A stretch of DNA of 64,000 bases from Bacteroidales bacterium. Lineage in GTDB: Bacteria > Bacteroidota > Bacteroidia > Bacteroidales > Muribaculaceae. A program made the position numbers and the translations under genes. The stretch is from NCBI GenBank assembly GCA_004557385.1, contig SFEA01000005.1:27465-91464 (forward strand), in the 5' to 3' direction. Each line of letters opens with the position of its first letter. Positions within the stretch are counted from its first letter, which is position 1. This document shows positions 10,593 through 40,831 of the stretch, piece after piece. Below the pieces are notes generated by a model, which saw only the letters and a program-made list of their open reading frames with translations, ran no database searches and was not told the origin of the DNA.

Positions 10593-12377
10593 ATGAGCAA
10601 AGAAACAGCAAAACACATCGAGGCAGTGCGCCAACAGATGCGCAGCGTGGGCGTTGATGCCGTGATTATTCCGGGAACCGACCCGCATCAGAGCGAATAC
10701 ATAAGCGACTATTGGAAGGTGCGCGATTGGGTGAGCGGATTCACCGGCAGCAACGGTACGGCGGTGATTACGCTCAACGAGGCAGCGCTGTGGACCGATT
10801 CGCGCTATTTCCTTCAGGCAGCCGAGCAGCTTGAGGGCAGCGGCATGGTGATGCATCGCGAAAACGGACCGAACCCCGACACAAAAGAAGAATGGCTTGC
10901 CGACGTGCTTGCCGACGTTGAAGATGCGGTGATTGGCATCGACGGCCGATTGTTTTCGGCGCGCCAGGTGAACGAACTTGAGCAGTTCTGCTTCAGCAAC
11001 GGCTTCCGCCTTGCCACCGACTTTGCACCTGCCGACCGTGTGTGGACCGATCGCCCGGCTCGTCCTGCCGGAAAAGCCATGGTGCACGACATCAAGTATG
11101 CCGGCGAAACGGTGGAGAGCAAGCTCGAACGCATTGAGGCGTGCATCGAGATTCAGCAAGCCGACGCCATGCTTGTGGCTGCGCTCGACTGCATAGCTTG
11201 GGCTTTGAACTTGCGCGGAACCGATGTGGCTTTCACTCCGGTGGTGACTTCGTTCCTATATATCTCGGAACCCGAAACGGTGTTGTTTATCGACCCTGAT
11301 AAGGTCACCGACGAGGTGGCGCGTCATCTGAAGGCGTCGGGCGTGAAGGTGAAGGACTACGACGATGTGGAGAAGTATCTGTCGAAAATCAGCCAAAGCG
11401 TGAGCGTGCTCATCGACCCTGATGAGGTGAACGACCGCCTTGCCTCGTTAATTGCAAGCAAGACATACGCCAAGAATCCGATTGCTTTGCTCAAGGGAGT
11501 GAAGAACGAGGTGGAAATCGAGGGCTTCCGCCGTGCTATGGAGCGCGACGGCGCTGCGCTGGTGCGCACCTTTATGTGGGTTGAGGAAATGGCGCCTACA
11601 GGCACCATCACCGAAACCGACGTGGCACGCCGTGCCATTGAGGAACGCCGCAAGGAAGACCTTTACACCGACGAGAGTTTTGGCATGATTGCCGGATATG
11701 CAGCACACGGTGCGATAGTACACTACGAACCCGAGGACGCCACAGCGGCAACGCTGCAAGCCGACGGGCTGCTGCTTGTCGACACCGGTGGCCAGTATCT
11801 CGACGGCACCACCGACATCACTCGCACAATTTCGCTCGGCAATCCCACTGAGGCACAGCGTCACCACTATACGCTGGTGCTGAAAGGCCACTTGGCATTG
11901 GGCAATGCAGTGTTCCCCGAGCACACACGCGGTGTGCAGCTCGATGTGCTTGCTCGTCAATTCTTGTGGAAGGAGCATCTCACCTATTTCCACGGCACCG
12001 GTCACGGCGTGGGCCACTACCTCTCGGTGCACGAAGGTCCGCAAAGCATCCGCACCCAGGAGAACCCTGTTGAACTGGTTCCGGGAATGATAACGAGCAA
12101 CGAGCCGGGATTGTATATCACCGACCAATACGGAGTTCGCATCGAAAACTGCGTGCTCACGGTGAATGCTGGCGAGAATGCCGACTTTGGCGGATTCATG
12201 AAGTTTGAAGACCTCACGTTGTTCCCTTACGACCTCACGCTCATCGACAAAACGATGCTCACAAGCCTCGAGGTGGACCAAATAAATGCTTATCACCGCA
12301 TGGTGCGCGAGCGGTTGGCTTCGCACCTCAATGCCGAGGAACTTGCTTGGCTCGAAGCAAAAACAGCCGAACTCTAA
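10593..12377 (+). CDS. Xaa-Pro aminopeptidase (aminopeptidase P family: creatinase-N plus M24B)
   Basis: 594 aa. The M24 metal-ligand region is HGTGHGVGHYLSVHEGP, followed by SNEPGLY and VRIEN. Confidence 0.85.
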   Translation: MSKETAKHIEAVRQQMRSVGVDAVIIPGTDPHQSEYISDYWKVRDWVSGFTGSNGTAVITLNEAALWTDSRYFLQAAEQLEGSGMVMHRENGPNPDTKEEWLADVLADVEDAVIGIDGRLFSARQVNELEQFCFSNGFRLATDFAPADRVWTDRPARPAGKAMVHDIKYAGETVESKLERIEACIEIQQADAMLVAALDCIAWALNLRGTDVAFTPVVTSFLYISEPETVLFIDPDKVTDEVARHLKASGVKVKDYDDVEKYLSKISQSVSVLIDPDEVNDRLASLIASKTYAKNPIALLKGVKNEVEIEGFRRAMERDGAALVRTFMWVEEMAPTGTITETDVARRAIEERRKEDLYTDESFGMIAGYAAHGAIVHYEPEDATAATLQADGLLLVDTGGQYLDGTTDITRTISLGNPTEAQRHHYTLVLKGHLALGNAVFPEHTRGVQLDVLARQFLWKEHLTYFHGTGHGVGHYLSVHEGPQSIRTQENPVELVPGMITSNEPGLYITDQYGVRIENCVLTVNAGENADFGGFMKFEDLTLFPYDLTLIDKTMLTSLEVDQINAYHRMVRERLASHLNAEELAWLEAKTAEL

Positions 12378-20307: not shown

Positions 20308-21486
20308 ATGATGAGTTATAAAATATACCTTCTTATATTGCTCGGTGCGTTGTCGGCATTCGGGCCGTTTGTCACAGATATGTATTTACCCAGCTTGCCG
20401 TCGATGGTCGATGACTACAACACCAGCGTTTCGATGGTGCAGATGGGATTGTCGTTCAGTATGTTAGGTCTTGCTTTGGGACAATTGCTTTTCGGTCCGC
20501 TGAGCGACAAATACGGTCGCAGAATGCCTGTGATTGTTGCCATGGTGGTGTTTTGCATAAGCACTTTGGCTTGCGTGTTTGCGCCCACCATCGAGGTTTT
20601 TGTTGGGTTGCGGTTTGTGCAAGGCGTTTCGGGCGCAGGAGGCATAGTGATTTCGCGTTCGGTGGCAACCGACACCTTCGATGGACATCAGCTGCTGAAG
20701 ATGCTTGCCATTATTGGTGCCATCAACGGCATCGCGCCAATCACGGCGCCGGTGGCGGGTGGCATGATTGTGAGCAGCATAGGGTGGCGCGGCATCTTTG
20801 TGGTGCTGCTGGTGATTGGCGTGCTGCTGGCTGTGGGCAGCTGCATAATGAAGGAGTCGCTGCCTGTTGAGCGGCGCAAATCCACCGGTGTTTTTGCCAC
20901 GTTCAAGTTGTTTGGCGTGGTGTTGCGCAACCGCACGTTCATGTGCTATGTTTTGCAGCAAGCCACCGCGCAAGCCATTCTGTTTGGCAACATTGCCTCG
21001 TCGCCGTTTATCGTTCAGACTCATTTTGGCGTTTCAGCCACCACCTTCGGATTGCTGTTTGCCGTCAACGGCGTGTTCATTGGCGTTGGTGCGGCATTGT
21101 CGGCACGGTTCCGCAAGCCCGAAACGTGCGTCAAGGTTAGTTGCATAGGCATGCTTGTGCTGAGTGCCCTGATGGCAGTGCTGCTGTTTGGCGGCTGCAA
21201 TGTGTTGTGGTATGAGGTGGTGCTCAATCCGTTGCTCGGCTTTATGGGCTTGACGTTCACGGCATCTACCACTCTTGCGCTCAACAGCGAGCGTGAAAAC
21301 GCGGGTACGGCGTCGGCAGTGTTTGGCGCCATAGGCTTCATGAGCGGCGGCATAGTCACACCGCTTGTTGGGCAGGGCAATATGCTTCACACCACGGCAA
21401 TAGTGTTTGTTGTTGGCGCGATACTGTCGTTCATGTTTGCTGCTATGGCAAGGGTGGCACAGCGCAGCACGAGTGTCAGTGCATGA
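20308..21486 (+). CDS. MFS transporter, Bcr/CflA drug-resistance subfamily
   Basis: 12-TM pattern with the motif GPLSDKYGRR. The first ATG is at 20308 (the ORF-track start at 20305 is TTG). TAnnTTTG boxes lie at 20250-20257 and 20278-20285. Confidence 0.8.
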   Translation: MMSYKIYLLILLGALSAFGPFVTDMYLPSLPSMVDDYNTSVSMVQMGLSFSMLGLALGQLLFGPLSDKYGRRMPVIVAMVVFCISTLACVFAPTIEVFVGLRFVQGVSGAGGIVISRSVATDTFDGHQLLKMLAIIGAINGIAPITAPVAGGMIVSSIGWRGIFVVLLVIGVLLAVGSCIMKESLPVERRKSTGVFATFKLFGVVLRNRTFMCYVLQQATAQAILFGNIASSPFIVQTHFGVSATTFGLLFAVNGVFIGVGAALSARFRKPETCVKVSCIGMLVLSALMAVLLFGGCNVLWYEVVLNPLLGFMGLTFTASTTLALNSERENAGTASAVFGAIGFMSGGIVTPLVGQGNMLHTTAIVFVVGAILSFMFAAMARVAQRSTSVSA

Positions 21487-21883
21487 GCATGGCATGCATA
21501 CGCTGGCTCAACAGCGCCAACGGACGAGCCTGATATTCAATGTGAAAAGAGCGGTTGAATAGCTGACCGCTGTGCCTGCCGGCGCAGCGCAGTTTGGCGC
21601 GGTTGCCGCGATGGCGATTGATGTAGGCTTGCAGCTCGTCGCCGTCAAGAAAAGGTGCGTCGAGCACAATCTTCACCGCACGTCCGGCACGCTGGCAATA
21701 GTCGAGCGCCAAATACATTTCGCGTTTAGGTATCAGCCGGTCGTAGAAATTCAGTTCGCAAGCCTCGATGATACTGCTCACATAAGTGCGTTCACACGCA
21801 TTGAAAAAGTCGTTTTCGTAATACTTGCGCCGGTATTCGGCGTAGATGTTTTTTCCGTTGTTCAGTTTCTCGTCGGTGTTCAT
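21476..21883 (-). CDS. Hypothetical protein
   Basis: 135-aa ORF with an ATG start. Its composition looks like the core genome. The 3' end overlaps the MFS gene by 11 nt, convergently. I recognise no motif. Confidence 0.45.
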   Translation of the reverse strand: MNTDEKLNNGKNIYAEYRRKYYENDFFNACERTYVSSIIEACELNFYDRLIPKREMYLALDYCQRAGRAVKIVLDAPFLDGDELQAYINRHRGNRAKLRCAGRHSGQLFNRSFHIEYQARPLALLSQRMHAMLMH

Positions 21884-22060
21884 AAAAAATGTGTGCTTTT
21901 TCGTTTTTCAATTCATACAAGCTGCTTCCTTAGGGCATCCGATGTGCAAAGGTGCAAACTATCTGGGCAAATTTCAAGCGCACCTTGCCCAATATGCGTT
22001 AAATTGAGTAATTTTTATCGTGATGACGAAATATTACAGCGTACTGAATGAACTGGATAA

Positions 22061-22079
22061 TTGTTAAATTATTTAACAA
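22061..22079. promoter_or_regulatory. Perfect 19-bp palindrome TTGTTAAattatTTAACAA upstream of the island operon (candidate operator)
   Basis: Read directly. The same heptamer recurs at 22099-22105 (TTGTTAA) and 22203-22209 (TTAACAA). The latter lies inside a second inverted repeat, atttttgtt (22186-22194) / aacaaaaat (22205-22213). Confidence 0.35.
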
Positions 22080-22340
22080 AATCGCGCTAAAATAGGAATT
22101 GTTAATAAGTGTAAAAGTTAAATATTCTTAATGGATATTTTGCTGTAAATTAATTGAATAGCAAATTTTATAGTATGAATAATGGATTTTTGTTGCTGAT
22201 TTTTAACAAAAATATACAAATGCCAAAATTTTCGATCGTATAATATATATAGAGACTAATTTTTTTTGAAGTATGAAAATAGCTATTTTGGAACACTTAA
22301 AGTAATCGAGAAATTATCACAATCAAAACACATAAGCGAT

Positions 22341-22667
22341 ATGAAAGAAAAACAAGAAGTACAACGCGAAGAACTTATCACACTTGAAGAAGAATTGGAG
22401 CTTATTAAGCAGATTCGACAATCGCCAGACGACTGCGAGGCTGCAAAGCAAAAACTATTATTTGCAAATCAAAGATTTGTACGTGTGATAGCAGAGAGAT
22501 ATGCCACCGACGAGCAGCAGACGAAAATACTTGTTGCTGAGGGCAATAAGGGGCTACTCTACGCCGTTGAAAAATATGATGAGACAAAAGGGTATAAATT
22601 CATAAGTTATGCTCTGTACTGGATTAAAGAATCAATTAAACAATATATCATGAATAACTCTAATTGA
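22341..22667 (+). CDS. Stand-alone sigma-70 region 1.2-2.4 protein; regions 3 and 4 are absent
   Basis: EEELELIKQIRQ ... AKQKLLFANQRFVRVIAERY ... LVAEGNKGLLYAVEKYDETKGYKFISYALYWIKESIKQYI aligns with primary-sigma regions 1.2, 2.1, 2.2, 2.3 and 2.4. For comparison, Bacteroidetes RpoD has [23 protein letters not shown]. A stop follows immediately after region 2.4. The first ATG is at 22341 (the ORF-track start at 22266 is TTG). Confidence 0.75.
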   Translation: MKEKQEVQREELITLEEELELIKQIRQSPDDCEAAKQKLLFANQRFVRVIAERYATDEQQTKILVAEGNKGLLYAVEKYDETKGYKFISYALYWIKESIKQYIMNNSN

Positions 22668-22670
22668 AGT

Positions 22671-23600
22671 ATGGCAACAAAAAGAAAAATCTCAGATGAT
22701 GAATTTTGGAAGAAACTGACTGAAGGCGAATACAAAGAAATTATAGCCTTTGCGTCGAAACGTGAAAATGAGTTGGATGTTCAAGTTAGAGATAACTATT
22801 TGAATATCTACTATCGAGGGGGAAACTTGTTAAAAATCAGTCCTCAAGACCTTTATTTCGATGAGTTCTATTTTCATCGTGGAGCCAAAGATATGCGTAA
22901 AACTCGCTTGAAAGAAAAAGCTAACGACATGGACAAAGAGTGTACTGAGCGTTGGGAATCTTACAAAGAACAACGAAAGGAAATGTTGGACATCCTTAAA
23001 AACGGTGGAGGTATGCCAATTTATAGTGCAAAGATGAAGAACATTATGGATGGGTGGGAAAAAGATCTTAACACGATAGGTCTCAACCATGATGAAAAGA
23101 ATGCCCAACAGCAAATATCAATGAATAACAGAGGTGCCACCGACTACACTGTTGTGGATTTGGAATATGCTGTAAGCAGGACATCGTCGTTCTGCTACAA
23201 TGGTAAATTAAACAAGAAGGTGCCGCGTTTTGATATTATCGCTGTTGATAAATCCGGCCAGTTGTATGTGATAGAATTAAAAACCGGATTTGATGCAATT
23301 GATGGATGTTCGGGCATTCGCGCCCACATGGATTGCTTTGTTCACTCTATTGGACGTGACTCCAAAAACGATTTCGTAAATGAAATGTACGAGTTATTGG
23401 GGCAGAAACAGGAATTAAACCTGATAGACAAAAATGTATTTATTGACAAGACTAAGAAACCTAAATTCATTTTCGCCTTCTCTGAGAAGGTGAAAGGAAA
23501 GCGCTGTTACGATGAATTTGTCGAAGAATGCAAAAAGATAAGGTACAATGACGAAATAATATATGTAGGTAATGATTATCAATTAAAAATAAAAAAATAA
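22671..23600 (+). CDS. PD-(D/E)xK nuclease-fold protein with an unassigned helical N-terminal half
   Basis: 309 aa. The ATG lies 3 nt after the stop of the sigma-fragment gene. The candidate catalytic core PRFDIIAVDKSGQLYVIELKTG has the D ... E-x-K pattern seen in NucS- and Shedu-type nucleases. Confidence 0.6.
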   Translation: MATKRKISDDEFWKKLTEGEYKEIIAFASKRENELDVQVRDNYLNIYYRGGNLLKISPQDLYFDEFYFHRGAKDMRKTRLKEKANDMDKECTERWESYKEQRKEMLDILKNGGGMPIYSAKMKNIMDGWEKDLNTIGLNHDEKNAQQQISMNNRGATDYTVVDLEYAVSRTSSFCYNGKLNKKVPRFDIIAVDKSGQLYVIELKTGFDAIDGCSGIRAHMDCFVHSIGRDSKNDFVNEMYELLGQKQELNLIDKNVFIDKTKKPKFIFAFSEKVKGKRCYDEFVEECKKIRYNDEIIYVGNDYQLKIKK

Positions 23601-23607
23601 AAGATGT

Positions 23608-25458
23608 ATGAAGATAACAATCCATCGTGGCACTGACCAGATAGGCGGTTGCGTAACAGAGTATGAGCATGAAGGTTGGAAGTTGTTCGTCGATTATGGT
23701 GAACAATTACCAGGGTCGCCAAAGTCAAGTCCTTTAGATATTGAGGGCTTAACAAAAGGCGACCTGACAAAGAGTGCGCTACTCATCACGCACTATCATG
23801 GCGACCATATCGGTTGCATCAAGGATTTGCCCAAGGAGCTTCCTATGTATATGGGTGGACTTGGAAGAGATATACAATTGGCTTATTCGGAACACATGTC
23901 GTATGTGGTTGAGGAGCAGAATTTGGTAATTGAGAGGCTGAAGGCGGCAGAAGCATTTCGTCCCGGACACCCGTTTTCAATAGGTCCATTCAAAGTTATG
24001 CCTTTGACAGTTGACCATTCTGCATTTGATGCCTACTCATTCAGAATTGAGGCAGATGGTGTAAGCGTATTTCATACGGGCGATTTCCGCACCCATGGTT
24101 TTAGGAGTGGAAAGTTAGAAAAAATGCTTGAACAATATGTCGGTAAGGTTGATTATGTTGTTTGCGAGGGAACCAATGTGTCACGCCCTGATTCGACATC
24201 ACGCACTGAAGCAGAAGTTCAAAAGGATTTTGAAATAGCACTTGGTCAGAAGATAGGTCATATTGTATATGTTTCATCAACCAATATCGACCGCTTGTTT
24301 TCGCTATATCACGCAGCTTTAAGAGCTGGCATGTTTTTCATTGTGGATGACTATCAGAAGCAGGTGATGGACATCGTGGCAAAAAGCGATTCGTTGTGGA
24401 GTAAAGCCACACTGTATCAATATGGAAAATTCGAGCCAATGGCTCTGTACAGAAATGGCGATGAATTTACCGTCAACGACAAGTTCATAAAGACAATACA
24501 GGAAAAAGGATATATACTGATTGCACGCGCTAATCCCAGATTTGACAAACTCATCCAGGAACTTCCAGGCGAGAAGAAAAAATACCTTTCGATGTGGGAC
24601 GGTTATATCAACAAGGATAAAGAGGCATACAATGAGGCATTGGCAAAGTCGGTGGGTAATGATTACGAGTATCTGCATACCAGCGGACACTGCGACATGA
24701 AGAGCATGCGTGAACTCTTCAGACGACTTCAGCCTAAAGCAATTATTCCTGTCCACACCAACAACCCCGATAAGTTTGCAGAGCAGTTCTGCGATGAGTG
24801 GCCAGTCATCAGACTGCATGATGGACAGTCTGTTGAGCCAATATCAACATCGATAGCAGATGCATGCAAATTAAGGGCGTTCTGTGCCAAGGAACTCGAA
24901 GGTGTAACCTATGATAGCATCAAGGATGGGGAACACGCATCTGGGCTTGATGAAAAATTCGTTGGTGCTTTCAAGTGCATGGATGCTGCCAAGTTCGTAA
25001 TGGAGCATACGCTTTTTGGGCAGGATAAAGTTGTTGGCTATGAGATTGATGACGATGAAGATTTATCAGCATCAAAGAGGTTGACATTTGATGCTGACAA
25101 GAATCTTTTAGCTACATATACTCGTGGCGGTCATCAACCCGGCGGCGCCAAGTATCGGGAAGCATGCCGTTTTGCTCCGGGAGAGAAGGCGTTGGCGGTA
25201 TTTCAGGCGCCTTATTATGCAGTTGTGCCTGTAAAGGTCGTCGGACCAATCACGCCTGAGTCTGAACGAGAAAGTTGGGAAATGAATGACCCTAAGGACT
25301 ATTATGATTCTTATGAAGACTACGTGAATGACTGGGATGACTGGCATTGGGATTCTGTGGCTGTTCATCCATTGGTGAAGTTGAAGTCATGCTTTGAGCA
25401 AATGACCGATACGGAAGTTGTACCAAGAGTTTACCTCTTCCCATACCATAAACTATAA
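23608..25458 (+). CDS. RNase J-like MBL-fold/beta-CASP nuclease with a ~215-aa C-terminal domain of unknown function
   Basis: 616 aa. Motifs in RNase J order: ITHYHGDHIG (HxHxDH), VDHSAFDAYSF, FHTGDFR, CEGTNV, SSTNIDRL (beta-CASP A-like), HTSGHCD and IPVHTN. The C-terminal part is acidic and Trp-rich (YYDSYEDYVNDWDDWHWDS), and I recognise no motif in it. Confidence 0.75.
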   Translation: MKITIHRGTDQIGGCVTEYEHEGWKLFVDYGEQLPGSPKSSPLDIEGLTKGDLTKSALLITHYHGDHIGCIKDLPKELPMYMGGLGRDIQLAYSEHMSYVVEEQNLVIERLKAAEAFRPGHPFSIGPFKVMPLTVDHSAFDAYSFRIEADGVSVFHTGDFRTHGFRSGKLEKMLEQYVGKVDYVVCEGTNVSRPDSTSRTEAEVQKDFEIALGQKIGHIVYVSSTNIDRLFSLYHAALRAGMFFIVDDYQKQVMDIVAKSDSLWSKATLYQYGKFEPMALYRNGDEFTVNDKFIKTIQEKGYILIARANPRFDKLIQELPGEKKKYLSMWDGYINKDKEAYNEALAKSVGNDYEYLHTSGHCDMKSMRELFRRLQPKAIIPVHTNNPDKFAEQFCDEWPVIRLHDGQSVEPISTSIADACKLRAFCAKELEGVTYDSIKDGEHASGLDEKFVGAFKCMDAAKFVMEHTLFGQDKVVGYEIDDDEDLSASKRLTFDADKNLLATYTRGGHQPGGAKYREACRFAPGEKALAVFQAPYYAVVPVKVVGPITPESERESWEMNDPKDYYDSYEDYVNDWDDWHWDSVAVHPLVKLKSCFEQMTDTEVVPRVYLFPYHKL

Positions 25459-25595
25459 GATAATAGGGATTTCTAACCGGCGACTAAAGAATACCGATGA
25501 CGTTCATGCTGTAAGTGTCACGATATGGGAATTTCTTGTGGCGGGTGAGATGGTCACTGGCGAGGCAAGATATTGCACAAGCCAAACATTTGAGT

Positions 25596-25603
25596 TATCT
25601 TTG
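25596..25603 (+). promoter_or_regulatory. Bacteroidetes -7 box TAtcTTTG upstream of the DUF5606 gene
   Basis: Matches the TAnnTTTG consensus, 70 nt upstream of the ATG at 25673. Confidence 0.3.
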
Positions 25604-25672
25604 CAGCTGCGTTGCCGAACGATGTGGCGGCGGAAATTTTATTAACGAACAATAGAAAACAATAGAAGAACT

Positions 25673-26098
25673 ATGTTGAAGAAAATACTGTCGATATCAG
25701 GCAAGCCAGGTCTCTACAAACTGGTTTCGTATGGCAAGAATATGATTATTGTTGAAAACCTCAGCGAAAAGAAGCGCATTCCGGCTTACACCCGCGACAA
25801 GATTGTGTCGCTTGGCGATATTGCCATCTACACTTATGGCGAGGAAGTGCCTTTGGCAAAAGTGTTCACCACCGTTTACGAGAAGCACGAAGGCAAGGCA
25901 ATTGATGCTAAGCAATACACCACACCTGAGAGCCTTCAGGCATTTATGACCGAGGCGTTGCCCGACTACGACCAAGAACGTGTGTATAACAACGACATCA
26001 AGAAAATCATCTCGTGGTATAACTTGCTGCTTGCTGCCGGCTACACCAAGTTTGAAGAAGAAGCTGAAGAAGCTGCTGAAGGCGAAGAAGCAAAATAA
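25673..26098 (+). CDS. DUF5606-like conserved Bacteroidetes protein
   Basis: 141 aa. The N-terminus MLKKILSISGKPGLYKLVSYGKNMIIVE and the acidic tail EEEAEEAAEGEEAK match my recollection of the family. No database check was run. Confidence 0.55.
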   Translation: MLKKILSISGKPGLYKLVSYGKNMIIVENLSEKKRIPAYTRDKIVSLGDIAIYTYGEEVPLAKVFTTVYEKHEGKAIDAKQYTTPESLQAFMTEALPDYDQERVYNNDIKKIISWYNLLLAAGYTKFEEEAEEAAEGEEAK

Positions 26099-31974: not shown

Positions 31975-32048
31975 GCCTCTTTAGCTCAGTTGGCCAGAGC
32001 ACGTGATTTGTAATCTCGGGGTCGTTGGTTCGAATCCGACAAGAGGCT
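31975..32048 (+). tRNA. tRNA-Thr (anticodon TGT)
   Basis: Hand-folded cloverleaf. Acceptor gcctctt/aagaggc, anticodon loop tt-TGT-aa, T-loop ttcgaat. There is a U29-U41 mismatch in the anticodon stem. CCA is not encoded. Confidence 0.9.
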
Positions 32049-32107
32049 CAAGAAAAACAAACCGGATGCGCAAGCGAGCGCACCACCCGGAGAGATTTTT
32101 GAAATTT

Positions 32108-32190
32108 GGGTAGTTTCCAGAGCGGCCAAATGGGGCAGACTGTAAATCTGCTGTCTTTCGACTTCGGTGGTTCGAATCCATCACTACCCA
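32108..32190 (+). tRNA. tRNA-Tyr (anticodon GTA)
   Basis: Acceptor gggtagt/actaccc, anticodon stem-loop gcaga-ctGTAaa-tctgc, a long variable arm, and T-loop ttcgaat. Confidence 0.9.
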
Positions 32191-32210
32191 CACCCGTAAA
32201 ACGGTGGTTT

Positions 32211-32282
32211 GCCTATGTAGCTCAGGGGTAGAGCGCTTCCTTGGTAAGGAAGAGGTCGCGGGTTCAATTCCCGCCATCGGCT
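32211..32282 (+). tRNA. tRNA-Thr (anticodon GGT)
   Basis: Acceptor gcctatg/catcggc with a U4-C69 mismatch, anticodon stem-loop cttcc-ttGGTaa-ggaag, and T-arm gcggg-ttcaatt-cccgc. Confidence 0.85.
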
Positions 32283-32437
32283 CAAAGTAAAGAAGGCTGA
32301 ATTTGGCTGCCAAATAGAGGTTGAATCTAATGCCAATCCTCTCATGAACAAGCAGCGCATGAATTACCGCTTCTGCTTAACAAGAATAACGACGAATATT
32401 ACGTTAATCATTTAATCAAAAAAATAACAAAAAAGTT

Positions 32438-33625
32438 ATGGCAAAAGAGAAATTTGAAAGAACCAAGCCACACGTTAACATTGGTACTATCGGCCACGTT
32501 GACCACGGTAAAACCACTTTGACTGCAGCCATCTCTAAGGTGCTCCACGAAAAGGGCTTCGGGTCAGAAGAAGTTAAGTCTTTCGACCAGATTGACAACG
32601 CTCCGGAAGAAAAGGAACGCGGTATCACTATCAACACTGCTCACATCGAGTATGAAACTGCAACTCGTCACTATGCACACGTAGACTGCCCGGGACACGC
32701 CGACTACGTTAAGAACATGGTAACTGGTGCTGCTCAGATGGACGGTGCAATCGTTGTAGTTGCTGCTACTGACGGTCCAATGCCTCAAACTCGTGAACAC
32801 ATCCTTTTGGCTCGCCAAGTAAACGTTCCACGTCTTGTTGTATTCTTGAACAAGTGTGACATGGTTGACGACCCAGAACTTCTCGAACTCGTTGAAATGG
32901 ACATGCAAGACCTTCTCGGCCAATACGAATTCGAAGAAGATACTCCAATCATCCGCGGCTCGGCACTCGGTGCTTTGAACGGCGAACCTGAATGGGTAGA
33001 AAAGGTTATGGACCTCATGAACGCTGTTGACGAATGGATTCAACTTCCTCCGCGTGCAACTGACAAGCCATTCCTGATGCCTGTTGAAGACGTATTCTCA
33101 ATCACTGGTCGTGGTACTGTTGCAACAGGTCGTATCGAGACCGGTATCGTTAAGGTTGGTGACGAAGTTCAAATCATGGGTCTTGGCGCTACATTGAAGT
33201 CGGTTGTTACCGGTGTTGAAATGTTCCGTAAGCTCCTCGATCAAGGTGAAGCTGGCGATAACGTAGGTCTTCTCCTCCGTGGTATCGACAAGAAGGAAAT
33301 CAAGCGTGGTATGGTTGTTTGCCACCCGGGTTGTGTTAAGCCACACGACGAATTCAAGGCTCAAGTTTACGTCTTGACTGAAAAGGAAGGTGGTCGTCAC
33401 ACTCCATTCCGCAACCACTATCGTCCACAATTCTACGTACGTACCCTCGACGTAACTGGTGAAATCACTCTTCCAGAAGGCGTTGAAATGGTAATGCCTG
33501 GTGACCACGTAACTATCCAAGTTAAGCTCATCACTCCAGTTGCTTGCGACCTTGGTTTGCGTTTCGCTATCCGCGAAGGTGGCCGTACAGTAGGTTCTGG
33601 TCAGATTATCGAAATCATCGACTAA
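32438..33625 (+). CDS. tuf: Elongation factor Tu
   Basis: [18 protein letters not shown] and NKCD; 395 aa. Confidence 0.98.
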
Positions 33626-33711
33626 TACCACTCTTGGTATAAGTTTCGAGATAAAGAATCACGATTCCGGTTGATGAACCGCATATAACGTAAGTCAACC
33701 GGAATTTTCCT

Positions 33712-33784
33712 ACGGGAATAGCTCAGTCGGTAGAGCACTGGTCTCCAAAACCAGGTGTCGGGAGTTCGAGTCTCTCTTCCCGTG
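33712..33784 (+). tRNA. tRNA-Trp (anticodon CCA)
   Basis: Acceptor acgggaa/ttcccgt and anticodon stem-loop ctggt-ctCCAaa-accag. Canonical position between tuf and secE. An 8-bp hairpin, ccggttga/tcaaccgg (33667-33702), precedes it. Confidence 0.9.
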
Positions 33785-33800
33785 CTAATAAAGTGAATTT

Positions 33801-33995
33801 ATGAAGAAATTAAAGTTATTTACGGATATTGAGGAATCTTATAGAGAATTGGTCTATAAGGTTTCTTGGCCAACAAAGAGTCAGCTTGCATCGAGCACCA
33901 TCTTGGTTATGATTGCTTCCATCGTAATAGCCTTGGTGATTTTGTGCATGGATCAAGTTATCGACACAATTATGCACTTCATCTACAGCATCTGA
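33801..33995 (+). CDS. secE: Preprotein translocase subunit SecE
   Basis: 64 aa with a single C-terminal TM helix (ILVMIASIVIALVILCM). Canonical position upstream of nusG. Confidence 0.9.
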   Translation: MKKLKLFTDIEESYRELVYKVSWPTKSQLASSTILVMIASIVIALVILCMDQVIDTIMHFIYSI

Positions 33996-34063
33996 TGCCT
34001 GAGTGGATGATTTGAAAAAAAAGGATAGTTTAAGGGTAAAAATCTTGTTAATTCAATTAGGAA

Positions 34064-34630
34064 ATGGCTGAAGAAAACAACATTGTGAAGAGATGGTATG
34101 CATTGCGTACTATTTCAGGCAAAGAACAGAAGGTGAAGGAACTGCTTGAAGCAGAAATCAAGAATTCTGATCTTGGCTTGCATGTTTATCAAGTGCTGCT
34201 TCCTACTGAAAAGATTGTATCTACATCCCGCGCCGGCAAGAAGGTTGTGAAAGAAAAACCCAGAATGTCGGGCTACATTTTTGTGGAGGCTACTATGACC
34301 GGCGAGATTGAGTATGAGCTCCGTAACACTACCAACATCATCGACTTTGTTCGTAACCGCGAAAATCCGCCGAAACCCGAACCTGTTCGTGAGGCTGAAA
34401 TCAACCGTATGCTTGGCGCTGCCGACAGCGACGCCATGAATGAGGTTGACAACGGCGTTAACGACTACATGGTGGGTGAGTCGGTAAAGGTGATTAGCGG
34501 ACCATTCAACGGATTCATTGGCGAGATTGAGGAAGTTAACCGCGAAAAGCGCACTCTCAAGGTCATGGTGAAGGTGTTTGGCAGAAAGACACCTCTCGAG
34601 TTGGAAAATTCGCAAGTAGAGCGTGAATAA
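34064..34630 (+). CDS. nusG: Transcription termination/antitermination factor NusG
   Basis: NGN domain (WYALRTISGKEQKV) and KOW motif (GESVKVISGPFNGFIGEIEEV). Confidence 0.95.
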   Translation: MAEENNIVKRWYALRTISGKEQKVKELLEAEIKNSDLGLHVYQVLLPTEKIVSTSRAGKKVVKEKPRMSGYIFVEATMTGEIEYELRNTTNIIDFVRNRENPPKPEPVREAEINRMLGAADSDAMNEVDNGVNDYMVGESVKVISGPFNGFIGEIEEVNREKRTLKVMVKVFGRKTPLELENSQVERE

Positions 34631-34704
34631 TTTGCGAGAAGGTTACGCTCTTGCAAATGTTTGTGCAACTTTATGTTTTAAATTTTAATTATTAAGATTG
34701 AACA

Positions 34705-35145
34705 ATGGCTAAAGAAATTGCTGGACAGATCAAATTACAGATTAAGGGTGGAGCAGCAAATCCTTCACCACCAGTAGGACCTGCACTCGGTTCTAAAGGT
34801 ATCAACATCATGGAATTTTGTAAGCAATTCAATGCTCGCACTCAAGACAAGGCAGGAAAGGTTCTTCCGGTTGTAATCACTTACTACACCGACAAGAGCT
34901 TTGACTTCGTGGTTAAGACTCCACCGGCAGCTGTACAATTGATGGAAGCTGCAAAGGTAAAGGGTGGTTCGGCTGAACCAAACCGCAAGAAGATTGCCGA
35001 AGTAACTTGGGAGCAAGTAAAGGCAATTGCTGAAGACAAAATGCCTGATTTGAACTGTTTTACTTTAGACTCGGCTATGAAGATGGTCGCAGGTACAGCC
35101 AGAAGTATGGGTATCACTGTAAAGGGTTCATTCCCTGAAAATTAA
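34705..35145 (+). CDS. rplK: 50S ribosomal protein L11
   Basis: [35 protein letters not shown]. Confidence 0.97.
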
Positions 35146-35162
35146 TTAAACTTCAATTCGAA

Positions 35163-35858
35163 ATGAGCAAACTTACAAAAAATCAAAAGTTAGTCAGCGA
35201 GAAGATTGAAGCAGGGAAGGCTTACACTCTTAAGGAAGCTGCAGAATTGGTGAAGGAAGTAACTTTCACTAAGTTTGATGCTTCAGTTGATATTGATGTA
35301 CGTCTCGGCGTAGACCCTCGCAAGGCTAATCAGATGGTTCGTGGTACAGTGTCGTTGCCAAACGGTACAGGTAAGCAAGTTCGCGTGCTTGTGCTTTGTA
35401 CAGCCGACGCTGAAGCTGCAGCCAAAGAAGCAGGTGCCGACTATGTTGGTTTGGACGAATATATCGAAAAGATTAAAGGCGGCTGGACTGACATTGATGT
35501 AATTATAACTCAGCCTGCCATCATGGGTAAGATTGGTGCTCTCGGTCGTGTGTTAGGTCCTCGTGGCTTGATGCCAAACCCAAAGAGCGGCACTGTTACT
35601 CCAGATGTAGCAAAGGCAGTTAAAGAAGTGAAACAAGGTAAGATCGACTTTAAGGTTGACAAGGGTGGTATTGTACACACCTCGATTGGTAAGGTTTCGT
35701 TCACTCCTGAGCAAATCCGCGAAAACGCTAAGGCTTTCGTTGATATGATTCTGAAGTTGAAGCCTGCAACTGCAAAGGGTACTTATCTGAAGAGTGTTTA
35801 TCTTTCAAGTACTATGAGTCCTGGTATCAAGGTTGATACTAAATCGATTAGTGAATAA
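35163..35858 (+). CDS. rplA: 50S ribosomal protein L1
   Basis: 231 aa, with [24 protein letters not shown]. Canonical position. Confidence 0.97.
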
Positions 35859-35879
35859 CTTTAAATGAACTAAGACAAG

Positions 35880-36407
35880 ATGAAGAAAGAAGATAAGCAA
35901 ATAGTTATAGAGAAGATAGCAGGTGTTCTTAAGGAATACAGCGCTATATACTTGGTTCAAACCACCGGCATGGATGCCGAGATGACAAGCGCGCTTCGCC
36001 GTGCTTCGTTCAAGGCCGACGTTAAGTTGATGGTGGTTAAGAACACCTTGGTGAAGAAGGCTATGGAACAGTCGGATGTCGACTATTCGGGTCTTTATCC
36101 AGCACTGGCAGGCTCAACATCGTTGATGCTCAGCAACACCGGTAACGCTCCTGCTAAACTTATTAAGGATTTCTTGAAGAAGAACAAGAACTCGCAACTT
36201 CCATTGCTCAAGGCTGCTTACGTAGAAGAGAGCGTGTATATGGGAGTAGAACAGCTCGACGCTCTGTGCAGCATCAAGAGCAAGAACGAACTTATCGCAG
36301 ATGTTGTTGCATTGCTGCAATCGCCTGCTAAGAACGTTGTAAGCGCTTTGCAATCGGGCGGTAACAAGCTTCATGGCATCCTTGAAACTCTATCAAACAA
36401 AGAATAA
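35880..36407 (+). CDS. rplJ: 50S ribosomal protein L10
   Basis: 175 aa. Canonical position between rplA and rplL. Confidence 0.93.
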   Translation: MKKEDKQIVIEKIAGVLKEYSAIYLVQTTGMDAEMTSALRRASFKADVKLMVVKNTLVKKAMEQSDVDYSGLYPALAGSTSLMLSNTGNAPAKLIKDFLKKNKNSQLPLLKAAYVEESVYMGVEQLDALCSIKSKNELIADVVALLQSPAKNVVSALQSGGNKLHGILETLSNKE

Positions 36408-36443
36408 ATAAAAAAATAATAAACTATTAAATCATACACAACA

Positions 36444-36821
36444 ATGGCAGATTTGAAAGCTTTTGCAGAACAATTAGTTAACCTTACAGTTAAGGAAGTT
36501 AACGAACTTGCTCAAATTTTGAAAGACGAATATGGTATCGAACCAGCAGCTGCAGCAGTAGCAGTAGCAGCAGGTCCAGCAGCAGGTGGTGAAGCTGCAG
36601 CTGAAGAAAAGGATTCGTTCGACGTTATCCTGAAGTCGGCTGGCGCAGCTAAGCTCGCTGTAGTAAAGGCAGTTAAGGAACAAACTGGTCTTGGCCTTAA
36701 GGAAGCTAAGGAAGTTGTAGACAACGCACCTTCGAAGATTAAGGAAGGCGTTGCTAAGGCTGAAGCTGAAGCCTTGAAGAAGGCTCTTGAGGAAGCTGGA
36801 GCTGAAATTGAACTTAAATAA
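36444..36821 (+). CDS. rplL: 50S ribosomal protein L7/L12
   Basis: Ala-rich hinge [21 protein letters not shown] and a C-terminal domain with [12 protein letters not shown]. Confidence 0.97.
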
Positions 36822-36845
36822 TATTACCTGATTATTCAGGTTGTG

Positions 36846-36885
36846 GGTTAAGAATCCTCTGTAATGTCGATTCTTAACCTTTTTG
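36846..36885 (+). terminator. Strong hairpin plus T5 between rplL and rpoB (attenuator/partial terminator)
   Basis: An 11-bp perfect stem, ggttaagaatc (36846-36856) pairing with gattcttaacc (36869-36879), followed by ttttt. Confidence 0.6.
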
Positions 36886-36923
36886 TGCTATAAAAATTTT
36901 GAGTTCACCCTAATTTAATTTTC

Positions 36924-39900
36924 ATGTCAGTTTCAACAAAAAACAAACGTGTTAATTTCGCCTCTGTAAAGAATCCATATCCGTTTCCGGATTTCCTGGA
37001 GGTGCAATTACAATCTTTCAGAGATTTTCTGCAGTTAGACACTCCAACTGAAAAGAGAAAAAATGAGGGACTCTACAAGGTGTTTGCCGAGAATTTTCCT
37101 ATTGCCGACACTCGCAACAACTTTGTACTTGAATTCCTGGATTATTATATCGATTCGCCACGCTACTCGCTTGATGAATGCTTGCAGCGCGGTGCAACAT
37201 ATTGTGTGCCTTTGAAGGCAAAATTAAAGTTGTATTGTACCGACCCTGAGCACGAAGATTTTGCCACTACAGTGCAAGACGTATTCTTGGGTCAGATACC
37301 GTATATGACTGATAAGGGTACATTCGTAATCAATGGCGCTGAACGTGTGGTTGTTTCGCAGCTTCACCGTTCGCCTGGCGTTTTCTTTGGTCAGAGCCAG
37401 CACGCCAACGGTACGAAACTCTATTCGGCACGTATCATTCCGTTCCGCGGCTCGTGGATTGAGTTTGCTACGGACATCAACAACGTGATGTGGGCTTACA
37501 TCGACCGCAAGAAGAAATTGCCGGTGACCACTCTGTTGCGTGCCATTGGTTTGGAAACTGATAAGGATATTATCGAAATATTCGGTTTAGCGGAAGAACT
37601 TAAAGTTAACAAAACCACTCTTAAGAAAGTTATTGGCCGCCGCTTGGCTGCTCGTGTTGTGAAATCGTGGAACGAGGACTTCGTTGACGAGGACACTGGT
37701 GAAGTTGTAAGCATCGAGCGCAACGAGGTGATTGTGGAGCGTGACACCGAAATCACTCAGGATAACATCGCTGAGATTCTTGAATCGGGCGCTGCCACCA
37801 TCTTGGTGCACAAGGAAGATGTGAACACCAACGATTATCAAATCATCTTCAACACCCTTCAGAAGGACCCGAGCAACTCTGAGAAGGAGGCTATCACATA
37901 TATCTATCGTCAATTGCGCAACGCCGAGCCACCGGATGATGCAAGTGCCCGTGAAGTTATCACCAACTTGTTCTTCTCCGACAAGCGTTACGACCTTGGT
38001 GATGTGGGCCGTTTCCGCATCAACAAGAAGCTGGGCTTGACCATCAGCGACGAAATTCGCGTGCTCACTCGCGAAGATATCATCGAGATTATCAAATATC
38101 TCATCGGTTTGATTAACAGCAAGACCGACGTTGACGATATCGACCACTTGAGCAACCGTCGCGTGCGCACCGTTGGCGAACAACTCTACAATCAGTTTGG
38201 CGTGGGCTTGGCTCGTATGGCTCGCACTATTCGCGAACGCATGAATGTGCGCGACAACGAAGTGTTCACTCCTGCCGACCTGATTAATGCCAAGACAATT
38301 TCGTCGGTTATCAACACCTTCTTTGGCACAAATGCTCTGTCGCAATTCATGGACCAAACCAACCCGCTTGCCGAAATCACTCACAAGCGCCGTTTGAGTG
38401 CCCTTGGTCCTGGCGGTTTGTCGCGCGACCGTGCCGGTTTCGAGGTGCGCGACGTTCACTACACTCACTACGGACGTCTTTGCCCTATTGAAACTCCTGA
38501 AGGTCCTAACATCGGCTTGATTTCGTCGCTTTGCGTTTATGCAAAGATTAATAAGCTTGGCTTTATCGAAACTCCTTACCGTCAGGTGGCAAACGGCGTT
38601 GTCGACCTCAAGAACGACGATGTTGTTTATCTCACTGCCGAGGCTGAGGAAGGCAAGATTATTGCTCAAGGTAATGCACCGCTCAACGACGACGGCTCGT
38701 TTATCCGCACCAAGGTTAAGTCGCGTCTCGACGCCGACTTCCCAGTTGTAGCGCCCGACCAAGTTGAGCTTATGGACGTTTCGCCTATGCAGATTGCGTC
38801 GATTGCAGCAAGCTTGATTCCGTTCCTCGAACACGACGACGCTAACCGTGCGTTGATGGGTTCGAACATGATGCGTCAGGCAGTGCCATTGCTTCGCACC
38901 GAGGCTCCTATTGTGGGCACCGGCATCGAGGCTCAGTTGGCTTACGACTCGCGTTCGCAAATTCAGGCTGAAGGTCCGGGCGTTGTTGAATACGTCGACG
39001 CTGCTACAATCAAGATTCGTTACGACCGCACCGAAGAAGAAGAGTTCATCTCGTTTGAAGATGCTGTCAAGACATATAATTTGCCTAAGTTCCGCAAGAC
39101 CAACCAAAGCACCACCATCGACTTGCGTCCGATGTGCGAAAAGGGTCAACGCGTCAACAAGGGCGACATCCTCACCGAAGGCTATTCTACTGCAGGTGGC
39201 GAGCTTGCCATCGGTCGCAACCTCAAGGTTGCCTACATGCCTTGGAAGGGATATAACTACGAGGATGCTATTGTGCTCAACGAACGTATGGTTCGTGAGG
39301 ACATCCTCACCTCGGTTCACGTCGACGAGTACACCCTCGACGTTCGCGAAACCAAGCGCGGTATGGAAGAGCTCACCAGCGATATTCCTAACGTAAGCGA
39401 AGATGCAACCAAGGACCTCGACGAACGCGGCATTGTGCGCATAGGTGCTCATGTTGGTCCTGGCGACATCCTCATCGGTAAAATCACTCCTAAGGGCGAA
39501 AGCGACCCAACTCCTGAAGAGAAGTTGCTTCGTGCCATCTTCGGTGACAAGGCTGGTGATGTGAAAGACGCTTCGCTCAAGGCCACTCCGTCGCTCAAGG
39601 GTGTTATTATCGGCACCGAGCTCTATCAGCGTGCCGCTAAGCGCAAACGCGGAACCAAGGACACCACTCTGCAAGATATCGACAACGAATATCAAGCCAT
39701 TCAGGACGAGTTGAAGAAGAAGCTCGTTGAAAAGCTGCTTGTTCTCACCGAGGGCAAGACTTCGAATGGCGTGAAGGACTATCTGGGCATCGACGTTGTG
39801 CCTAAGGGCGCACCATTCACAGCTCAGGTGCTCATCAATATCGATTTCGCCACTGTCAACCTCGTGAAGTGGACAGCCGACGCTCACAAGAACGAACTCA

Positions 39901-40730
39901 TCCACCAGTGTGTGATGAATTATCTGCGCAAGTCGAAGGAATACGAGGCTGAAAAGCGTCGTAAGAAGGACGACTATCAGATTGGCGACGACCTTCCATC
40001 GGGCGTAATGCAAATGGGTAAGGTTTACATTGCCAAGAAGCGCAAGATTGGCGTGGGCGATAAGATGGCAGGTCGTCACGGTAACAAGGGTATCGTGTCG
40101 CGCGTGGTTCGTCAGGAAGATATGCCGTTCCTTGCCGATGGCACTCCGGTTGACATCGTGCTCAACCCTCTGGGTGTGCCTTCGCGTATGAACATCGGTC
40201 AGATTTTCGAAGCCGTTCTTGGCTGGGCAGGCCGCGAATGTGGCGTGAAGTTTGCAACGCCAATCTTCGACGGTGCAAGCCTCGAAGACTTGAACTATTG
40301 GACCGACAAGGCAGGACTCCCTCGCTATGGCAAGACCTATCTTTACGATGGTGGCACCGGCGAGCGTTTCGACCAGCCAGCCACAGTGGGTGTGACCTAC
40401 ATGCTTAAGCTGGGTCACATGGTAGAAGATAAGATGCACGCCCGCAGCATTGGCCCGTACTCGCTTATAACTCAGCAACCTCTTGGTGGTAAGGCTCAGT
40501 TTGGTGGTCAGCGCTTCGGTGAAATGGAAGTTTGGGCAATCGAGGCATTCGGTGCTTCGCATGTGCTCCAGGAAATTCTCACCGTCAAGAGTGACGACGT
40601 TGTTGGTCGCAGCAAGGCTTATGAAGCCATTGTCAAGGGCGACGCAATGCCAACTCCGGGCATCCCTGAATCGCTCAATGTATTGCTCCACGAACTTCGC
40701 GGTTTGGGCTTGAGCATCAACATGGAATAA
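36924..40730 (+). CDS. rpoB: DNA-directed RNA polymerase subunit beta
   Basis: 1268 aa, with [15 protein letters not shown] and [10 protein letters not shown]. Confidence 0.98.
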
Positions 40731-40831
40731 TACTTACAACGAGAGCTGCATGCTTGTGAGTGACACATCTCGCAGGCATGCAAACCCCGTGAAAAAGATA
40801 AAATTAACTCTTTTAAGAAAGAATTAAACAA

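Follow-up and report, generated by a model that had tools for sequence, protein, structure and literature searches.

The three-gene cassette described here lies in a 64,000-nucleotide stretch of DNA from a Bacteroidales bacterium of the family Muribaculaceae (GenBank assembly GCA_004557385.1, contig SFEA01000005.1, positions 27,465 to 91,464 of the forward strand; the whole stretch is hereafter called the window), and its genes, g1 to g3, recall several systems that have already been described. MZA, a five-gene system, holds a sigma-70-derived domain within a nuclease- or ATPase-bearing defence operon, and g1 aligns to the region-2 part of its protein MzaA. The controller (C) proteins of type II restriction-modification (RM) systems are encoded, like g1, by a small gene located immediately upstream of an endonuclease gene and co-oriented with it, with repeated or palindromic sites and a conserved promoter preceding the gene in both cases, and one of the loci headed by a relative of g1 carries a DpnII RM system. 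T4 gp55 and split sigma factors consist, as g1 does, essentially of sigma region 2, and a TATAAT-type element is conserved at g1's own promoter. The complete set of metallo-beta-lactamase (MBL) motifs I-IV and beta-CASP motifs A-C found in g3 is that of RNase J, CPSF73, SNM1 and Artemis, and Shedu (SduA), HamA and NucS are top, non-significant structural neighbours of the g2 model. Two further families, both absent from the window, accompany the relatives of the cassette: REase-ARP (PF22558), found behind sigma fragments and in fusions with g2 relatives, and PDC-S10 (Metallophos), which follows g2-MBL pairs.

The cassette consists of the following coding features, given by their positions in the window:

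22341 to 22667, plus strand: g1, sigma-70 domain 2 (regions 1.2-2.4), 108 aa; the reading frame is open from a TTG at 22266
22671 to 23600, plus strand: g2, 309 aa, unnamed family
23608 to 24819, plus strand: catalytic part of g3, an RNase J-like MBL/beta-CASP nuclease
24820 to 25458, plus strand: C-terminal domain of g3, about 212 aa, beta-rich

The three open reading frames (ORFs; 22266/22341-22667, 22671-23600 and 23608-25458) share the plus strand and are separated by gaps of 3 and 7 nt, as stated by the initial annotation, which had been made from the letters of this DNA without database searches; TGA-agt-ATG was read in the sequence, and the 7-nt gap follows from the coordinates.

None of the likenesses listed above amounts to membership of a known system. 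MzaA has about 726 aa (NCBIfam NF041931) and extends far beyond region 2, whereas g1 has 108 aa; the cassette was not accepted as MZA, the MzaA match being partial (428-500 of 683 in the PADLOC model PDLC02203), MzaB-E being absent and three genes only standing in the block. C proteins are Xre-type helix-turn-helix dimers, whereas g1 is a sigma domain 2 in which no helix-turn-helix was found, so the likeness is one of analogy. Classification as a type II RM system was rejected because no methyltransferase stands next to the endonuclease gene in 21884-25672. Unlike T4 gp55, g1 is not phage-borne, no gp33-like or sigma region-4 partner was found for it, and the likeness is one of domain content. 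Compared with RNase J, g3 falls under the equivalog thresholds, has a different C-terminal domain and is always paired with a PD-(D/E)xK-type gene. SduA is a single-gene system, whereas g2 has a distinct N-terminal domain and an obligate MBL partner; with no Pfam or PADLOC match to SduA (DUF4263) or NERD, g2 was not assigned to it. The initial annotation had recognised no named system, and PADLOC 2.0, Pfam, NCBIfam and PHROGs likewise assign none; neither of the two gene pairings is described in the searchable literature, nor is any named system with such content.

The triad is better described as a composite of two independent recurrent modules at one site than as one three-gene system. A single co-conserved system had been proposed from the sequence alone, with synteny in other genomes as its test; however, the triad proved syntenic in the same or sister species only, at this one site, and that proposal fails. 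Elsewhere, relatives of g2 occur with an MBL gene and without a sigma fragment (module A), and relatives of g1 occur with other nucleases and without an MBL gene (module B).

Module A was surveyed by a metagenome scan with a trimmed g2 alignment, the alignment of 64 distant members being too diverse, which yielded 80 loci at 74-25% identity; a separate genome scan, limited by narrow search patterns, gave 7 loci only. An MBL/beta-CASP gene is adjacent to the g2 relative and on the same strand in 50 of the 57 loci with enough flanking DNA (44 downstream, 6 upstream), and the two genes usually overlap or abut. Fusions of g2 to MBL are present in 2 of 64 sampled family members, and an MBL-g2 fusion occurs in one related locus (L017; loci from other contigs are given L numbers). 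Among the seven loci without an adjacent MBL gene, two encode g2 fused to a REase-ARP nuclease domain. The g2 family counts 762 representatives of 50%-identity clusters in an exhaustive HMMER search, almost always beside a beta-CASP nuclease, and the pairing is therefore very widespread. The sigma fragment is missing from nearly all g2-MBL loci; in the loci that hold all three (L008, L017, L062), its place is behind the MBL gene, and a truncated gene for DNA polymerase III (Pol III) alpha comes next.

Several other genes recur beside module A. WYL/WCX regulators were found at 7-8 of 22 long g2-MBL loci, a 188-aa Metallophos neighbour matches the PADLOC candidate PDC-S10 at 3e-66, and a pair of 173-aa and 67-aa proteins is a further recurrent neighbour. 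In a few loci HAD_SAK_2 is fused to g2 relatives or stands beside them. The WYL, Metallophos, Pol III fragment and 173-aa genes of these loci are found nowhere in the window. When g1 and g2 were compared by pairwise BLAST with three proteins that accompany g3 homologues (173, 293 and 369 aa), the matches were near or below significance, the best being that of g2 with the 293-aa protein (E 0.002 over 27 residues). The 293-aa type could be linked to the g2 family by HMM only (1e-11), and the 369-aa type stays outside it.

An integrative element with a tyrosine integrase, HTH_17, DUF3987 and a 445-aa protein extends over about 1-17000 in L001 (Prevotella communis CP091792), L005 and L006. It contains a conserved 173aa-67aa-(293/369aa)-MBL-Metallophos cassette and, beside it, a variable slot occupied by HsdMS (type I RM) with Fic and HigBA, by AbiE with a PHP-AAA_21 protein, or by two GmrSD; the element looks like a Bacteroidales mobile-element defence hotspot.

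Truncated Pol III alpha genes (197-480 aa) stand beside g2-MBL at L008 10868-11767, L017 10056-10898 and L062 4892-5776, and more of them beside g2-MBL cassettes at L001 5481-6074 and L072 3447-4889; three times the fragment directly follows a sigma fragment. These proteins carry the palm-N region, the fingers or both, and that of L008 is without DnaE positions ~412-618, a gap which we expect to take in some of the catalytic palm. Since the fragments show conservation from one locus to another, at 52% identity for L008 and L017, they are probably functional. A tandem expansion is seen at L017 4841-12155, where g2, a 720-aa MBL-g2 fusion and a second MBL gene precede a 94-aa sigma fragment; the cassette ends with the Pol III alpha fragment and a full-length 290-aa sigma factor (regions 1.2, 2, 3 and 4), which at 11283-12155 provides a full-length comparator for g1.

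Module B is defined by what follows the sigma fragment. A nuclease cargo lies directly downstream in all eight distinct contexts found, namely REase-ARP in six, a DpnII RM system in one, and g2 with MBL, in the window, in one:

This window: g2 and MBL
L124-129, sister strain, same site: g2, MBL, a 319-aa REase-ARP and a 60-aa ORF
L030-32, L033, L120/121 and L130-132: 331-347-aa proteins of one family
L035: a 305-aa REase-ARP
L117-119, at the same chromosomal site as in L035: two small ORFs and a complete DpnII set

Within the 331-347-aa family, the types of L030, L120 and L130 match REase-ARP; that of L033 does not, yet is 56-63% identical to them. The L117 set has an M-R-M order, with a Dam-type methyltransferase, the DpnII endonuclease and an N6/N4 methyltransferase. 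L117 2136-5801 and L035 7001-8331 share as flanks HTH_3/182-aa genes and an ACT/formyltransferase gene. At this site the cargo is, to judge from the two contigs, exchanged behind a constant sigma 'head'. GmrSD is found near the L130 locus, and an IS element and a YafQ toxin near that of L030. The possibility that g2 is itself a divergent REase-ARP was rejected, as hhalign of the two families gives a probability of 0.2; with no homology detected between g2 and REase-ARP, the nucleases that accompany the sigma fragment come from unrelated families.

The sister strain documents a change of cargo at the site of the window itself:

25462 to 25469: breakpoint relative to the sister allele, where L124 has 1186 bp more (the 319-aa REase-ARP and the 60-aa ORF)

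The indel is clean, the window allele being without the fourth gene, REase-ARP, and the 60-aa ORF. Between window 23608-25458 and L124 6268-8118, g3 is 100% identical in its N-terminal part and 99.8% in its C-terminal part, while identity is 94.5% for g2, 96.9% for g1, 91.4% for the leader and 94.7% for the gene of the neighbouring MFS transporter. This mosaic suggests a recent recombination or sweep of the g3 segment.

The sigma fragment is preceded by a leader that appears to belong to the module:

21884 to 22340, plus strand: AT-rich leader or regulatory region, GC 0.28, with no Rfam family and no tRNA within it
22061 to 22079: perfect 19-bp (9+1+9) palindrome TTGTTAAAT-t-ATTTAACAA, a candidate operator
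22099 to 22105 and 22203 to 22209: additional half-sites
22200 to 22272, plus strand: conserved promoter-like block of about 76 nt, shared with L033, L035 and L117
22204 to 22221: Box A, TAACAAAAATATACAAAT
22235 to 22251: Box B, ATCGTATAATATATATA, containing TATAAT at 22239-22244
22260 to 22268: T8-G run following Box B

The block conforms to the pattern TTTTAACAAAA-N2-ATACAAAT ... ATCGTATWATATATAGAG-N6-T7-8-GA and is 72-78% identical among the window, L033, L035 and L117, whereas dS between the sigma genes is at least 1.1, near saturation. Among the loci fetched, Boxes A and B in combination occur upstream of sigma-fragment genes only; Box B alone also precedes the sigma operon of L030 and the sigma gene of L062. 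A canonical TATAAT/TATTAT hexamer is contained in the block; Bacteroidetes housekeeping promoters use TAnnTTTG, and a TATAAT-type hexamer is unusual there. The block at 22200-22272 is read as the putative promoter/operator of the sigma-headed operon. A near-copy of Box B (ATCGTATAATATATATT) at window 56064-56080 falls inside the 5' end of the minus-strand ORF 54915-56090 and was set aside as an intra-ORF match, probably due to chance. Generic scans for sigma-70 promoters and terminators returned counts not above the shuffled expectation, for promoter-like and terminator-like sites alike.

The TTGTTAA/TTAACAA repeats, to which the initial annotation had drawn attention, are real and correspond to the palindrome and the two half-sites. 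Four of the window's 13 such sites fall in a 150-bp part of the leader, for which a composition-based estimate of ours predicts about 0.3, and in L035 and L030, too, TTAACAA repeats precede the sigma-fragment gene. Position 22061, given earlier as the start of the cassette, is that of the palindrome and not of a gene.

The protein encoded by g1 is a maintained sigma fragment. It matches Pfam Sigma70_r2 (1e-9), and its matches to the RpoD, RpoS, RpoH and MzaA models are confined to regions 1.2-2.4; its alignment with solved sigma factors (RpoD/SigA) covers E. coli residues 343-444 and goes no further, the polypeptide ending at the equivalent of residue ~447. The restriction to regions 1.2-2.4 seen at first reading was thus borne out by both profiles and alignment. 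The 23 clusters of homologues are nearly all 101-122 aa long, the exceptions being a 185-aa call and a 60-aa fragment, and when aligned share one C-terminal end point; from these lengths and the common end point, the start is most likely the ATG at 22341 and not the upstream TTG, a correction to the previous gene model. A dN/dS of 0.12-0.20 against five homologues, and of 0.12-0.26 over all pairs, marks a maintained protein rather than a pseudogene. As a sigma-70 initiation factor would carry regions 2, 3 and 4 in one polypeptide and only regions 1.2-2.4 are present, g1 is not a canonical sigma factor. Residues were mapped by our reading of the homologue alignment against E. coli numbering; on this mapping, g1 presumably retains the counterparts of N383, E407, N409, Y425, F427, Y430 and W434 and is altered at what we take to be W433 (to Y), Q437 (to E) and T440 (to K). 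Against PHROGs, g1 gives a partial match to phrog_351, a phage sigma factor family; a scan of IMG/VR viral contigs returned no g1 relative.

The product of g2 is likely a PD-(D/E)xK-type nuclease of an unnamed family, as judged from motifs and a structural model. No match with an E-value below 0.01 was obtained against Pfam, NCBIfam, PHROGs, PADLOC or PDB sequences, the best PADLOC match, PDC-S11 at E 0.014, not being meaningful, and the family profile retrieved coiled-coil noise only from the PDB; relatives are named 'hypothetical protein' only in their sources. Ten residues are invariant across 64 diverse members (R40, Y47, Y48, Y67, E142, D163, D188, E202, K204 and H219). In the AlphaFold model (pLDDT 80), an N-terminal alpha-alpha-beta3 domain, which holds R40, Y47, Y48 and Y67, is followed by a helical middle and by a PD-(D/E)xK-type core, where E142, D163, D188, E202, K204 and H219 map to a helix-strand-strand-strand-helix arrangement (H141-152, E159-167, E186-193, E198-205), as in PD-(D/E)xK nucleases. 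The signature E...D...D...ExK on an alpha-beta-beta-beta-alpha-beta core is thus present. Foldseek placed no structure at or below E 0.001 (best 0.066); PD-(D/E)xK nucleases make up most of the top 30, including SduA, N.BspD6I, AdnA, NucS, HamA, Card1, Exo5, TnsA and McrC. Four of the 64 family members weakly match known domains (two SduA_C, two NERD), IMG/VR scans gave only two weak relatives, and dN/dS is 0.12-0.31. Of the D...ExK core proposed beforehand, the residues therefore stand, being invariant in 64 members, and the fold is likely but without a significant structural match.

For g3 (616 aa), Pfam Lactamase_B_2 and RMMBL score above their thresholds and RNase J provides the closest PDB sequence matches. 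The RNase J-type motif series reported initially is complete: MBL motifs I-IV correspond to D29, H62xH64xD66H67, H137 and D159, and beta-CASP motifs A-C to E187, H361 and H383, which places the protein in the MBL/beta-CASP superfamily. It was nevertheless rejected as an RNase J orthologue, since it lies far under the cut-offs of TIGR00649 (48.7 vs 400 bits) and NF047419 (45.7 vs 820 bits) and is without the RNase J C-terminal domain. Residues 405-616, modelled with AF2 at pLDDT 90, form the 212-aa C-terminal domain, for which Foldseek against PDB and BFVD found nothing at E < 0.05; Tudor/Sgf29-like matches (E 0.06, TM 0.25) were too weak to be used. Many g3 homologues (416-427 aa) lack this domain, and others reach up to 794 aa with LRR_5. 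An extra BspA-type LRR_5 region is present in the homologues P0159, P0162, P0164-P0168, P0171 and P0172 (L005 8001-10385), of 734-797 aa. The C-terminal region of the family is thus a variable module that may bind ligands. With dN/dS of 0.12-0.31, all three cassette genes are under purifying selection.

Taken together with the neighbourhoods of its relatives, the cassette may be a restriction-like defence unit in which g1 acts as expression controller or specificity subunit, a reading to which we give a roughly even chance. In module A, the widespread two-gene nuclease pair, g2 carries an N-terminal domain of nucleic-acid-binding-like type and would be the first to cut the target, a nucleic acid that is most likely invading DNA; g3, as an enzyme of RNase J/SNM1 type, would then degrade from the new 5' ends, cut endonucleolytically, or both, its variable C-terminal domain providing recognition of target or partner. 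Module B would comprise g1 and its conserved promoter, heading nuclease-cargo operons in Bacteroidales. By binding the RNA polymerase core, the -10-like TATAAT element of its own promoter, or both, g1 could set the level or timing of toxic nuclease expression, as C proteins do for restriction enzymes; to us, the sigma fragment resembles an expression controller no less than a sensor. Observation covers the domain content, the two conserved pairings, the fusions of g2 with MBL and with REase-ARP, the promoter block, the purifying selection and the island-like composition; what we infer is that the cassette serves defence, on which substrates and in which order its enzymes act, and that g1 is a regulator.

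The company kept by the relatives speaks for defence, and so do the close g2-MBL pairing, the invariant active-site residues, the constant nuclease cargo of the sigma fragment, the purifying selection, the low GC and the allelic indel at the site. AbiE, GmrSD, HsdMS, Fic, HigBA, WYL/WCX, PDC-S10 and the DpnII RM system form a suggestive neighbourhood of conflict or defence type, and partners as well as the C-terminal domain of g3 are exchanged without constraint, as is typical of conflict systems. WYL-WCX regulators co-localise with defence systems (PMC9122601, PMC9122588, PMC11662680). If this reading is right, two gene pairings, both absent from PADLOC 2.0, would be added to the catalogue of bacterial immunity, and gut Bacteroidales would be using a piece of the primary sigma factor as a transferable head for restriction enzymes. 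Such a head would parallel controller proteins, though built from sigma, and would be a cellular counterpart of T4 gp55-type minimal sigma factors. It would also bear on how toxic nuclease genes are silenced or timed after horizontal transfer. The small size of the cassette, its clear catalytic residues and the defined 76-nt promoter block make these hypotheses directly testable.

A number of observations weigh against it. We know of no lone sigma domain 2 that binds palindromic duplex DNA, so the TTGTTAA repeats may serve another regulator, and the region 2.2 residues which we take to contact the polymerase core (counterparts of L402, D403 and Q406, on the same mapping) are not conserved in the fragments. 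Against MzaA (NF041931), g1 scores 67.5 bits where 800 are required, the match being confined to model positions 447-545, and no cassette protein reaches any PADLOC 2.0 defence-system model. For g2, the PD-(D/E)xK fold derives from motifs and a non-significant Foldseek list, and hhalign detects no relation to REase-ARP. No methyltransferase ORF was found in 21884-25672, and the window holds no other device for telling self from non-self. The defence-type neighbourhood holds for the relatives (AbiE, GmrSD, RM, Fic, HigBA) and not for the window copy, which stands alone in the core chromosome and is present in every same-species contig seen. Distant g2-MBL pairs have mostly housekeeping neighbours, defence genes being modestly frequent and scattered; Pol III alpha genes or fragments recur beside the module; and WYL regulators also run DNA-damage responses (PMC12392091, PMC13010146, PMC11662680).

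The last two points lead to an unlikely alternative, DNA-damage repair or tolerance, in which a WYL-type damage-sensing regulator would govern a beta-CASP nuclease processing ends or cross-links in the manner of SNM1/Artemis, together with the PD-(D/E)xK nuclease, an Mre11-like phosphoesterase and DnaE-like parts, the window holding a reduced version. WYL/WCX is the commonest neighbour of g2-MBL, Metallophos is a frequent third gene, and UvrA lies 2 kb off in the window. Yet the regulator, Metallophos and polymerase genes are precisely those that the window is without, and the Pol III fragments are without DnaE ~412-618, the expected palm segment. The distribution is patchy, island-like and of low GC, such ready exchange of partner genes and of the C-terminal domain of g3 is not typical of repair pathways, and sigma-fragment modules carry restriction enzymes.

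Just as unlikely, in our estimate, is a mobile-element take-over or maintenance function, by which sigma and Pol III alpha fragments would disturb or redirect host transcription and replication to the advantage of an integrative element or satellite. The nucleases would have a part in replicating the element, in breaking down host DNA or in post-segregational killing, and the window copy would be a stranded remnant. T4 gp55 sets the precedent of a sigma-domain-2-only protein reprogramming RNA polymerase. Cassettes of g2-like, MBL and Metallophos genes do occur inside elements with a tyrosine integrase, HTH_17 and DUF3987, IS elements and transposases adjoin sigma-nuclease pairs, and the partial phrog_351 match of g1 points the same way. 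The window copy, however, is bordered by no integrase, excisionase, replication gene or repeat; in other genomes, too, the cassette sits between housekeeping genes. The IMG/VR result, with two weak g2 relatives and no g1 relative, argues against a phage origin, and the purifying selection on all three genes indicates that the cassette is not a decaying remnant.

Within the defence reading itself, the most novel option, and an improbable one, is a decoy function, in which g1 would be a bait mimicking a host protein targeted by phages and the catalytically dead Pol III alpha fragments of sister loci would be like baits. Phages do encode inhibitors of transcription and replication; once the bait had captured one, the nucleases attached to it (g2/MBL or REase-ARP) would be licensed to act, and bacteria would possess 'integrated decoy' immunity built from fragments of RNA polymerase sigma and DnaE.

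Among the rivals of defence, we consider RNA degradation, processing or repair less probable than the two given above. Here g3 would be a true RNase J-type 5'-3' exo/endoribonuclease tethered by g1 to RNA polymerase, with a phosphoesterase healing the ends, and beta-CASP RNases do act on nascent RNA at RNA polymerase in B. subtilis, archaea and eukaryotes. Among solved structures, RNase J enzymes are nearest to g3, which carries the RMMBL 'RNA specificity' motif, and HAD_SAK_2, which accompanies a few g2 relatives, is an RNA-repair HAD domain; against this stand the 48.7 of 400 bits for the RNase J family, the absence of its C-terminal domain, and the fact that the constant partner of g3 and the partners of g1 are restriction-endonuclease-fold proteins, including those of the DpnII DNA restriction system. 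A non-functional origin, by chance adjacency of three ORFs or with g1 as a sigma pseudogene fragment, would fit the confinement of the triad to one species-level lineage and the partial nature of g1, and is nonetheless highly improbable given that g1 homologues keep their length and stop position (dN/dS 0.12-0.26), that each of the two pairings, sigma with nuclease and g2 with MBL, is seen in many independent instances, and that the 3- and 7-nt gaps fit co-transcription. A small remaining share of probability goes to readings outside this list.

The restriction-like cassette, as we prefer to read it, forms the 3.4-kb core of an AT-rich insert of about 3.8 kb in a Prevotella-like core chromosome. 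GC is 0.28-0.39 at 21750-23750, 0.41-0.48 at 23500-25750 and 0.50-0.60 in both flanks, so that windowed values confirm the higher AT content claimed for the block, which we regard as compositionally foreign and horizontally acquired. UvrA, an MFS transporter and a 135-aa hypothetical gene lie on its left, and DUF5606, NlpC/P60, AroE (shikimate dehydrogenase) and ComEC on its right, these names being the Pfam labels of an identical contig. As previously noted, the borders of the block show no integrase and no tRNA, and the flanks hold no direct repeats of at least 10 nt; with integrase, attachment repeats and tRNA target all absent, the block is not recognisable as prophage or integrative and conjugative element cargo. 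No empty-site allele was found, and those contigs with an identical DUF5606 protein that reach upstream all carry the cassette genes. One further feature lies downstream of g3:

25610 to 25632, plus strand: possible terminator (hairpin and T-rich tail, a weak call) between g3 and DUF5606

The 135-aa ORF (21476-21883, minus strand) is divergent from the cassette, has normal GC and no Pfam family, is 99% identical in the sister strain and runs 11 nt into the end of the MFS gene; the leader may serve both this ORF and the cassette as a divergent promoter region.

Further to the right, window 31975-45142 contains tRNA-Thr/Tyr/Thr, a 395-aa ORF, tRNA-Trp, smaller ORFs and then two large ORFs. By ORF size and order, the 395-aa ORF is probably tuf, followed by ribosomal-protein genes, and the ORFs 36924-40730 and 40832-45142 are probably rpoB and rpoC. 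The cassette thus lies about 11 kb upstream of the presumed RNA polymerase core genes rpoB/rpoC, a proximity that is most likely a coincidence.

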